A stretch of 64,000 nt of DNA from Candidatus Omnitrophota bacterium (GTDB taxonomy: Bacteria > Omnitrophota > Gorgyraeia > Zapsychrales > Zapsychraceae), in contig JAGQKV010000012.1 in the NCBI GenBank assembly GCA_020429915.1, positions 65,737 to 129,736 on the forward strand, given 5' to 3'. The position numbers and the translations under genes are program-made. Positions within the stretch are counted from its first letter, which is position 1, and every line of letters begins with the position of its first letter. Of this stretch, positions 20,476-23,400 are shown piece after piece. The notes beneath the pieces are model-generated. The model saw only the letters and a list, made by a program, of their open reading frames with translations. It was not told the origin of the DNA and ran no database searches.

Positions 20476-23400
20476 CGGTTCATAAAATGCTCGCGCAATC
20501 GAGCGGGATCGGTAAATCCAAAATTGCTATACTGATTCCTAGGGATATGGTAACCAGCCGCACGCACAGCACCTAGCGCCCAGTCGGTACAATTTGCCGT
20601 TAAGGCGAAAGCACCAACAGGGGAATCAATATATGTTTGCACCATATTGGCCTGCGCCGCGTTTATCGGATAAACTTTTGAAATATCGGCATAGTCACCG
20701 AGTGCAGTGCCGGGCATTTCTTCTAATCTTAAGCCCGGGGATGAACGTCCAAGTACCCAACTGGCATGACTGTTCGACCTCTTCAAAGGCCATTTTCCAA
20801 AGTACTGCCGCCTACCATCCGGATATATCAGTCCAACGCCTGCATGCCCCTCACCCACCCGAAGTATGAGAGCATGATCTGGTCGCATACTTGAAGGGTT
20901 GGCTTGCATAATACGTCTAATTTCATCCGCTCTATTTTGGGCAACTTGTGCATGTGAATTAAATCCATCTCTTTTAACAAAGTTTTGTGCATGTTCGCTG
21001 CTTAAAAAACCTAAGACCGCGCCTGATCCAGCACCCGAAATAGCGCCTTGACCAATATCCTTGCCAACTATAGCGGATCCGGCAGCGCCTATTGCTCCAC
21101 CTTCAACGGCAAAAGCTCCAGATCGCAAAAACGGATTCACAACATCATGGAATCCAGCGGCGCCAAACACCGCAGATATTCCAAAACCAACCGCGGCTCC
21201 TGCCAAGGTTTTACCAAGCCCGGATCCGGAAAAAAAAGCCTCACCCAAACTTAGGGTAGAATTAATCAAACTGAATGCCTGAAAAGCGGCATAGGGATTA
21301 AAAACTGTGCCAATGAATGTAAATATTGCGGCAGCACCCGAGACCAGCGATTTCCAGAATTTCTTAAACCAACCATGCCCACTCGGATCTACATTGTTCA
21401 CCGGGTTATTTCCGGCGTAGGCGTAACGGTTAAAAGTTTGAGGATTTTCGGCGGACTGTACTATCGTATCCGGCGAAATAAACCTTCCCAACTCCGGATC
21501 ATAATAGCGGGCCTGCATGAAGATGAGGCTGCTTTCGGGGTCTTCATAGTGTTGGGTAAAGTAATAGCGACCCTGGTCGACAGGGTCGTCGTACACCACA
21601 TGACTGAAGGCCGTTGCCCCGAACGGTCGGTATTCACGGATTTCGCGGATGGCCCCGTCACGGTCGGTGGCCACATTCGTTCCACCAAGGTGATCCGTGT
21701 GGTAATAAAAAAATCCGTCGCCGCGCACGGTGGCGATGCGTTGGGACCCGAGGTAGATATGGCGGCTGTCGCCTCCCGGGCCCATTTCATAGAGCGAACC
21801 GACAAATTCCGTGATGATCCCGCCGACGGACTTGCTGGTCCGCCCGCCGTCGCCGTCGTACTCGTAAGTCGCCTTTACCATACCGTCTTTTCGAATCCGG
21901 CGCAACCGATTTTCCATGTCATATTCATACTCGGTCAGATCCTGAGCCTCGCCCAAAACGATAACTTGCTTGGCGGTCATATTGCCGTTATCGTCATACA
22001 CATAGACCGCGCGGGTTTGGCTGACCGGATCAAACGTGTCACACACGGCATGCGGTCCCCCGCCGCAATTGGCGTTGTAGGTATAGGTCTTGCCGTCCTT
22101 TTCCATAATATTACCGAGCACATCGTATTCGTAATTCCTGAAACCATAGCGTCCGGGATTATCGGCCGTCTTCAGCCGGTTGAGATGGTCATAGGTGAAC
22201 GTTTGGGTCGCGGTGTGAACGGCGTCAACAATGGTGAGGATATTTCCGGCAGCGTCATAGCCGTAACTCAGGTCTTGAATGTCGCCGGAGGCCCGGGCCC
22301 AACCGTTCCCGTCCTCCAGCGGCTCCGTTCCGGGGGCAAAGGTTTTCTTGTGCAGCAGCCGCTGGTTAAATGCATCAAAAAAATAGTAAGTACGGGTGCC
22401 GTTGCCCATCCGCAGATACGTCATCTGCCCGAAGACATTGTAGCGGATATCCTCCGCAAAGGTCTGCACGCTGCGTTCAATGGCGAACTCATCGAGAATC
22501 CCCAGCGAATAGCGAGCGATCTGCGACGCGTCGATGGATGTGACCAGCCCGTCGGCGCTGGTATCGGCGCGTTCACGTTGCTCCTCGGTCGACGAAACCA
22601 GCTGCAGCGCGATACGGACCGCCAGCGAGGCATCAATCGCGGTAATGCGCCCGTCGCCGCTCACGTCTCCGTATAACATGTTCGGATCTCCCTGACTGAC
22701 CCGCTCCACCTGCCCGGCGGCGTTATACGCATATTTAAGCTTGATCCCCCGCGGATACTTCAAGGCAATGAGGTTGCTCAAAGCATCGTACTCACGGCTG
22801 ACATCATAATTGATCATGCCCACCGTCTTTGTCGATACCATCTCCCGCCCCAGCTCATCGTAATGAAAACTCGTTCCGCCGTTGCCGTAGACCACATTGA
22901 CCAAGCGTCCGGCAGCATTATCCTGCCCCAGGATATCCTCGTCGTATTCATAGAGGACCGTGGAACCGCCGTCACTAAATGCCTTACGCGTCAACCGATT
23001 GAGCTCATCGTAGTAGAAGGTGATCACCCGGCCCATGGCGTCGGTCTGGGTCTTAAGGTTTCCGTTGGCATCATAGGTATACGCCCAACGGCCCATGTCC
23101 GGGTCTTCCAACCAACGTTTGCGGCCGAGCGTATCGTAACCGATCCGTGTGGTGACCGCTGCACCGTCGGCATCCGCGCGGGTGGTAATGAGATTATCCT
23201 GAGAATCATAATCGTACTCGGTGGCGGTATAGAGTTCATAAGGTTCGGCCGGGTAGTCCGGGGATCGACCGTCCGCGCCGCTGTAGACCTCCTTGCGGAT
23301 CAGCCGGCCGAAGGCGTCATAATAAGATCTTTGCATATGCCCGTTTTCGTCGTACGACGTGGCGGTCCAATCGTCATACTCGACGTTGGAGAAAGTAACC

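Follow-up and report, generated by a model that had tools for sequence, protein, structure and literature searches.

A dockerin inserted in the YD-repeat shell of a TcB-TcC-type RHS protein of Omnitrophota and a cohesin encoded in the same operon

The BC subcomplex of Tc toxins, represented by TcdB2-TccC3 of Photorhabdus (4O9X/6SUP) and YenB-YenC2 of Yersinia (4IGL), is built from SpvB, an FG-GAP propeller, TcdB_midN and a YD cocoon, and it has an Rhs core autoproteolysis motif and a variable C-terminal payload. The same parts recur in a protein encoded in a stretch of 64,000 nucleotides of a Candidatus Omnitrophota bacterium (contig JAGQKV010000012.1, positions 65,737 to 129,736; hereafter the window, meaning this whole stretch). 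Unlike the BC subcomplex, however, this protein is fused into one polypeptide, begins with a predicted Sec signal peptide and has a dockerin in its shell. It also differs from Tc systems in its surroundings: a domain scan of the open reading frames (ORFs) of at least 600 aa in the 64-kb window found no TcA-like component, and the host is an uncultured member of the Omnitrophota, not an insect pathogen. A cohesin is encoded in the same operon, and the locus joins two modular systems that are normally treated apart, RHS/Tc cocoons and cohesin-dockerin assembly. We consider it probable that the dockerin is external and binds this cohesin in a calcium-dependent manner; a tether or an assembly involving a neighboring lipoprotein would be a speculative extension of this reading.

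Another close relative is mosquito SGS1 (8FJP; PMC9935623), which likewise has a Tc-like Rhs/YD shell, exterior binding modules inserted in the YD repeats and a hydrophobic payload inside. Its inserts, a propeller, a CBM, a lectin-CRD and a wedge domain, bind their targets directly, whereas the dockerin inserted in the Omnitrophota protein is an adaptor and depends on a cohesin supplied as a separate protein. The classical example of such an adaptor is the cellulosomal type I pair of the Xyn10B dockerin and the CipA cohesin (1OHZ/2CCL), which the pair in the window resembles in having a two-segment, near-symmetric F-hand dockerin and a cohesin β-sandwich. Unlike the cellulosomal pair, it comes with no scaffoldin and no carbohydrate-active enzymes (CAZymes), the single cohesin is free, the dockerin is internal to a domain instead of terminal, and its cargo is a toxin cocoon. 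The combination that defines a cellulosome, a multi-cohesin scaffoldin with dockerin-bearing CAZymes, is absent from the window. The closest folds to the operon cohesin are those of the C. perfringens glycosidase toxin complexes (2VO8/2JH2) and of A. fulgidus (2XDH). The dockerins and cohesins of these two organisms, however, stand at the ends of multi-domain enzymes, and no RHS/Tc protein is among their carriers. The C. perfringens pair reportedly assembles secreted virulence enzymes, not cellulases.

An earlier note on this DNA, made from the sequence alone, knew of no described RHS/Tc toxin with a dockerin. This holds for BC-type cocoons, for which no case was found, but not for polypeptides with dockerin and Rhs repeats in general, which had already been described as ScaO and ScaP of A. 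cellulolyticus, ScaO1, ScaO2 and ScaP2 of C. alkalicellulosi and other dockerin proteins (PMC3413522, PMC6780208). These proteins combine dockerin and Rhs without SpvB, propeller or TcdB modules, and none is described as having a dedicated cohesin in its operon. In ScaO and ScaP, moreover, the dockerin precedes the Rhs region, in contrast to the insertion in a shell hairpin of the Omnitrophota protein. Some PT-TG polymorphic toxins are on record as carrying a dockerin or a cohesin (PMC13483458), and dockerin-rich giant proteins have been described in the Omnitrophota themselves (PMC10066038; bioRxiv 10.1101/2023.11.21.568195). In the literature that we searched, no Tc/BC-type cocoon is described that combines a dockerin in its shell with a cohesin from the same operon. 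What is new is the combination; the shell, the insertion principle and the adaptor pair are each already known.

A dockerin in a hairpin turn of the shell

The protein and its parts are located in the window as follows.

20472 to 26876, minus strand: fused TcB-TcC-type RHS toxin gene (Pfam, NCBIfam, AlphaFold2 model and Foldseek)
26778 to 26876, minus strand: predicted Sec signal peptide, aa 1-33 (read from the sequence)
22467 to 22691, minus strand: 75-aa insert, aa 1396-1470, in place of a hairpin turn of 0-8 residues (55-homologue alignment, pairwise BLAST)
22509 to 22673, minus strand: dockerin core, two segments of calcium loop plus helix, aa 1402-1456 (Pfam Dockerin_1)
21375 to 21632, minus strand: Rhs-associated core, aa 1749-1834 (NCBIfam TIGR03696)
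20475 to 21374, minus strand: polymorphic C-terminal payload, aa 1835-2134 (300 aa), unalignable beyond aa 1834

The ORF of 2134 aa holds the region 22480-22680, in which the earlier note had seen a complete two-segment dockerin. The translated ORF has exactly DVSGDGRITAIDASLAVRIAL, a 13-aa linker QLVSSTEEQRERA and then DTSADGLVTSIDASQIARYSLG at aa 1404-1459 (nt about 22500-22667). Pfam Dockerin_1 (PF00404) covers aa 1402-1456, corresponding to model positions 1-55 of 57, with 38.0 bits (E 1.8e-9) for the whole protein and 45.1 bits (E 1.2e-11) for a 101-aa excerpt, the gathering cut-off being 22.9 bits; a search with this profile had been proposed as a check, and the match obtained is significant and full-length. 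Both loops, DVSGDGRITAID and DTSADGLVTSID, fit the pattern D-x-[NS]-x-D-G-x-[VI]-[NT]-x-x-D and have D1, S3, D5, T9 and D12 at the calcium-ligand positions 1, 3, 5, 9 and 12. The LxxRxxL helix said to follow them is exact in the first segment, whereas the second reads QxxRxxL. The AlphaFold2 (AF2) model has predicted helices at aa 1416-1428, 1431-1436 and 1450-1467, with one after each loop. In a phmmer search against PDB sequences the best match is the type I dockerin of C. thermocellum Xyn10B (2ccl_B/1ohz_B; E 2e-7, gapless over 61 residues), and the significant matches of the insert are nearly all dockerins or enzymes with a terminal dockerin. Judged by these matches, the insert is a complete type-I-like dockerin with both predicted calcium-binding loops intact. 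Dockerin_1 also matches the orthologue P0002 with 36.3 bits. The orthologue at a related locus (L002) has S at position 5 of a loop, a residue that EF-hand loops tolerate at this position.

Type I dockerins use positions 10, 11, 17 and 18 for recognition. The two segments are alike at these positions (A-I/V-R and S-I/A-R), and a dual binding mode, in which the dockerin would be bound in either orientation, is therefore plausible.

Could this be a chance likeness of calcium-binding DxDxDG loops, such as those of FG-GAP or thrombospondin-type repeats? False flags of this kind do occur, an example being the precomputed PF00404 label on the homologue P0018. In the present case, however, the match takes in both segments, the linker and the helices over 55 of the 57 model positions at 38-45 bits, the alignment to the 1OHZ/2CCL dockerin is gapless, and the module, a discrete unit outside the propeller, has been conserved in four lineages. 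The explanation by chance is extremely improbable and effectively refuted. A six-frame scan of the 64-kb window found the loop motif only at these two places. As for P0018 itself (2030 aa), its Dockerin_1 flag is most likely spurious: it has no two-segment motif, and the DFNGDG loops of its FG-GAP propeller are the likely source. A count of dockerin-bearing RHS proteins made from domain lists alone would come out too high.

The module lies within the YD-repeat region, with RHS repeats and a high-confidence β-hairpin shell on either side, so that its description as embedded inside the RHS shell proved apt. In Pfam and NCBIfam the order of the protein is signal peptide, SpvB (aa 53-207), FG-GAP propeller, TcdB_midN (TcdB_toxin_midN, aa 653-779), YD shell with many RHS/YD repeats, Rhs core and C-terminal payload. 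The predicted signal peptide has the core IIASLLFLIAT and the cleavage motif ADA|Q, and the N-terminus of the L002 orthologue is equivalent to it. TIGR03696 matches aa 1749-1834 with 72.7 bits (cut-off 32.5), and the motif RYYDPELGRF...DPSGHGW (...NNVDPSGH|GW), which appears to be of the autoproteolysis type, closes the shell. An AF2 model of aa 650-1800, made with 32 homologues, is confident for the shell (pLDDT 85.8, pTM 0.80), and Foldseek ranks the fusion structures of TcdB2-TccC3 first among its PDB matches (E about 1e-48, TMq 0.70-0.74). Rhs cores of type VI secretion systems and teneurins follow among the later matches, and SGS1 is also among the structural matches. Because of its domain order and the match of the shell model to TcdB2-TccC3, the protein is identified as a fused BC-type Tc/RHS cocoon: it is a TcB-TcC-type cocoon, predicted to be exported by Sec, with a putatively autoproteolytic Rhs core and, at the C-terminus, a payload that can be swapped. 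Its GenBank record (MCA9394075.1, from a metagenome-assembled genome of Candidatus Omnitrophica) reads 'VCBS repeat-containing protein'.

Where in the shell is the dockerin inserted? Alignment of 55 homologues showed that YxYNxxGxLxxV and VxxxxYNAxGQ are the two strands of a single YD hairpin, the turn of which has 0-8 residues in most of them. The window protein and P0002, which share 75% identity overall, have the 75-aa dockerin segment in place of this turn. The survey of homologues for the same insertion, which the earlier note had recommended, found a dockerin at the same turn in P0002 and in a more distant protein, P0131, and other inserts in other homologues. The largest is that of P0005 (aa about 1463-2644), which has about 1100-1180 aa comprising a DUF4992-like region, LamG_3, a GH115_C-like region and four fn3. 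Those of P0004 (458 aa, aa 1458-1915), P0013 (433 aa, aa 1529-1961) and P0030 (199 aa, aa 1368-1566) consist of three β-rich repeats by eye, of Ig-like repeats by eye and of a region predicted from its composition to be helical, respectively. Since unrelated inserts occupy exactly the same turn in several homologues, the turn is, as far as these alignments tell, an insertion hot-spot of BC-type shells, and a hairpin that accepts inserts from 60 to >1100 aa marks where RHS shells tolerate grafted modules. The turn most likely faces outward, because inserts of >100 kDa cannot share the lumen with the payload. There is a solved precedent for such an arrangement in SGS1, where four domains with insertion points in the Rhs/YD repeats stand on the outside of the shell (PMC9935623). 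The idea that the dockerin marks the junction of a TcB/TcC fusion was also considered, and it was rejected, as the alignment did not support it: the dockerin is a plain insertion at a hairpin turn, and in insert-free homologues the homologous YD strands directly adjoin the turn.

The cohesin and its operon

Three genes follow the RHS gene on the same strand.

19975 to 20475, minus strand: 166-aa protein, hydrophobic at the N-terminus; start codon and RHS stop overlap (ATGA)
19345 to 19944, minus strand: TPR lipoprotein, 199 aa, with the lipobox LLAGC (weak TPR_12 Pfam match)
18818 to 19291, minus strand: secreted single-cohesin protein, 157 aa (Pfam Cohesin, AF2 and Foldseek)

The operon is tight: the RHS stop overlaps the next start, and the other gaps are 12-53 nt. 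The earlier note had expected a cohesin-bearing partner for the dockerin, and one is encoded here as a single-cohesin gene, the third gene downstream of the RHS gene, in an order conserved in related species. It is recorded in GenBank as a 'hypothetical protein' (MCA9394072.1). Its start codon was fixed from homologues, and a signal peptide (...AVHA|LEV) is predicted.

The assignment as a cohesin has several grounds. Pfam Cohesin (PF00963) matches the window protein with 26.1-26.7 bits, the cut-off being 24.1, and it matches all 8 of the 8 members of its family (best E 3.6e-9), which have 157-175 aa and make up 8 clusters among 5.8 billion proteins. When the AF2 model of the protein was compared with PDB structures by Foldseek, all of the 50 best matches were cohesins, the top one being 2vo8 (E 2.3e-6, TM 0.57/0.65); the first two in the ranking, from C. 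perfringens (2VO8) and A. fulgidus (2XDH), are both non-cellulosomal. A profile search of the family against PDB sequences gave weak matches, with cohesins first at E 0.018. The 157-aa protein is a real cohesin. By family hidden Markov model (HMM), exactly one cohesin is present in the window and one each in L002 and L003, the loci that carry the downstream genes, and none in L001 or L004. The whole 64-kb window thus contains one dockerin and one cohesin, and no others were found.

The two other genes of the operon are less informative. The TPR lipoprotein has no informative match in NCBIfam or PDB and a weak one in Pfam, and the 166-aa protein has no family match and no informative one in Pfam, NCBIfam or PDB.

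What would a secreted cohesin without an anchor do? It might bind the dockerin as a periplasmic chaperone for assembly or export, or as a cap against activity or self-association, and not as a surface tether. The cohesin has a signal peptide and no anchor, SLH, sortase or lipobox signal, and it and the RHS protein are both predicted Sec substrates; the missing TcA-like component among the large ORFs of the window also suits such a role. However, the adjacent lipoprotein is highly conserved (74-88%), which fits an envelope-anchored complex better, and we know of no precedent for a cohesin acting as a chaperone, which counts against the idea. We regard a chaperone or cap as decidedly unlikely, and external docking to the cohesin is the reading retained below.

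Conservation of the locus and exchange of the payload

The gene order HemN, dockerin RHS, small variable genes, TPR lipoprotein, cohesin and convergent polyprenyl synthase is common to the window and L002, in which the RHS gene, about 62% identical, is frameshift-fragmented on a contig of 2x coverage. L001 and L003 are two contigs of one sample, between which the same gene order is split; the RHS protein is 75% identical. The series of dockerin RHS, TPR lipoprotein and cohesin recurs in this way in two related species, and two further, partial contigs have its 3′ part: in L005/L006 the RHS 3′ end is followed by the TPR lipoprotein and then the cohesin, and in L007 a degraded RHS 3′ remnant (the payload end) precedes the TPR lipoprotein and the cohesin. 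The TPR lipoprotein gene adjoins the cohesin gene in L002, L003, L005/L006 and L007. It is the best conserved accessory gene (88% identity to the window in L003 and 74% in L002), the cohesin being second with 58-68% among orthologues. The 166-aa protein is 33% identical to the product of a 171-aa gene of L002, and it has no homologue between the RHS and TPR genes of L005. From these gene neighborhoods, the association of the TPR lipoprotein and the cohesin with the dockerin RHS protein is seen to be an arrangement conserved across related Omnitrophota. The additional cohesin loci were obtained from exact-protein look-ups only; the cohesin profile picked up no relatives when it was run against genome contigs of GTDB and metagenome contigs of JGI.

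The insertion itself appears to be old. When 1.84 billion representative proteins were searched exhaustively by phmmer with aa 1340-1530, one further BC-type protein with a dockerin at the same turn came up, P0131, which is 42% identical. Over four lineages, down to this 42% identity, the alignment of the dockerin insert has a single 3-residue gap, and this near-gapless alignment points to one ancestral insertion, old and retained. Between the window and P0002, the dockerin core is 75% identical with a ratio of non-synonymous to synonymous substitution rates (dN/dS) of about 0.2, a ratio that is approximate as dS is near saturation, and the shell is 76-84% identical. By this comparison, the dockerin appears to be under purifying selection and to change no faster than the shell, in contrast to the payload, which is swapped.

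A search with a profile of four dockerins plus flanks returned two small unrelated dockerin proteins and nothing else. P0290 (233 aa, ENA), from the dockerin-profile search, has both a dockerin and a cohesin flagged by precomputed Pfam. Another protein, P0178 (1229 aa, on a 4.7-kb ENA metagenome contig), has three complete dockerins among YD repeats, with loop pairs at aa 111/145, 447/481 and 862/896. Like the ScaO/ScaP-type proteins, it has no SpvB, propeller or TcdB modules and no described dedicated operon cohesin, and dockerins seem to have entered its YD repeats independently. At the P0131 locus (L004 8397-9795), an AbiEii/AbiEi toxin-antitoxin pair stands where other loci have the TPR and cohesin genes.

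The payload has a different history. Its first part, a long hydrophobic stretch rich in Gly and Ala, recalls the membrane-helix payload that SGS1 shields in its shell; the initial ~45 residues of this stretch are common to P0131. The payload ends with a domain of ~190 aa with the cysteine motif ...TANCTDWA.... Apart from weak Gly-zipper matches in Pfam at the hydrophobic stretch, searches of Pfam, NCBIfam and PDB gave no informative family for it. After aa 1834 the window protein is unalignable to its orthologues. The orthologues of L001, L002, L005 and L007 have a lipase-like GxSxG payload followed by the gene of a 123-aa lipoprotein (immunity-like), neither of which is in the window. The GC content is 0.44-0.50 over 19800-21600, a region that covers the payload and the 166-aa gene, versus about 0.56-0.60 in the flanks, and this dip suggests that the payload cassette was recently swapped.

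Proposed docking to the cohesin and its alternatives

If the dockerin is placed as proposed, it would sit on the exterior of the cocoon and would bind the cohesin of its operon in a calcium-dependent manner, like cellulosomal dockerins. More speculatively, the anchor-less cohesin and the TPR lipoprotein may tether or assemble the loaded cocoon at the envelope or surface of the producer, which would provide a docking platform for a TcA-less BC toxin in contact-dependent use. Equally speculative is the idea that the shell hairpin would be a general slot for targeting or anchoring modules, in which a dockerin was installed in this clade; it comes from the finding that the same hairpin bears lectin-like, fn3, Ig-like or helical modules in homologues.

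Several points weigh against external docking or against the tether. In the AF2 shell model the dockerin has a pLDDT of 43-51, with the insert present in 2 of the 32 alignment rows and no calcium modelled. The Pfam score of the window cohesin is only about 2 bits over the cut-off, and its AF2 model is of moderate confidence (pLDDT 61.8, pTM 0.62, 8 strands). No SLH, sortase or lipobox signal was recognized as an anchor on the cohesin protein, and its tethering role rests on the adjacency of its gene to the lipoprotein gene. Many non-cellulosomal dockerins reportedly have no known cohesin partner. Finally, no homologue of the cohesin, the TPR lipoprotein or the 166-aa protein is present in the 3.4 kb downstream of the P0131 gene on its contig (L004).

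That P0131 keeps its dockerin with no cohesin within this distance would be expected if the dockerin were an orphan, with an EF-hand pair that stabilizes the shell or recognizes, on prey or matrix, a ligand other than a cohesin, and if the cohesin served another partner or a generic Ig-like surface role. The many non-cellulosomal dockerins of Omnitrophota giant proteins have been read as adhesins (PMC10066038; bioRxiv 10.1101/2023.11.21.568195), and the lectin-like or fn3 modules at the same site in homologues would bind targets directly. However, the sole dockerin and the sole cohesin of the 64-kb window share one operon, and this dockerin-cohesin pairing recurs in related species. Moreover, the cohesin family is very rare (the 8 clusters in 5.8 billion mentioned above), and its gene lies beside an RHS 3′ end or a TPR gene in every contig examined. 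An orphan dockerin is, in our judgment, unlikely, and docking to the operon cohesin remains the reading that we prefer.

In a more far-reaching form of this reading, the cohesin and the TPR lipoprotein would replace TcA: they would form a surface platform on ultra-small, putatively predatory or epibiotic Omnitrophota, with the cohesin-dockerin joint holding the BC cocoon. We offer this only tentatively and think it rather doubtful. If it is true, the cohesin/TPR platform would allow Tc/RHS cocoons to be deployed through contact and without TcA, and the hairpin would be a general slot for interchangeable modules.

Many fused BC-type proteins have no TcA partner, and how they are positioned and delivered is an open question, for which a dockerin with an operon cohesin gives a testable hypothesis. 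The protein also adds a candidate weapon to the poorly understood repertoire of Omnitrophota for host or prey interaction. In engineering, a natural dockerin handle would let Tc/RHS delivery cocoons attach to cohesin scaffolds.

Two further observations concern the surroundings of the operon. One is a promoter-like site upstream of the RHS gene.

26970 to 26997, minus strand: promoter-like site, sigma-70 consensus TTGACA-16-TATAAT (12/12 match)

It lies ~95 nt upstream of the RHS start codon, in a region where the total of promoter-like sites is not above the shuffled expectation. The other concerns the ORFs of at least 600 aa scanned in the window, which are PurL, a CCC transporter, BioA/D, a spermidine-synthase-like protein and a LysM protein of 1730 aa. 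The last of these (44630-49822, minus strand) has as its lone Pfam match a borderline LysM at aa 1543-1606, near the C-terminus.

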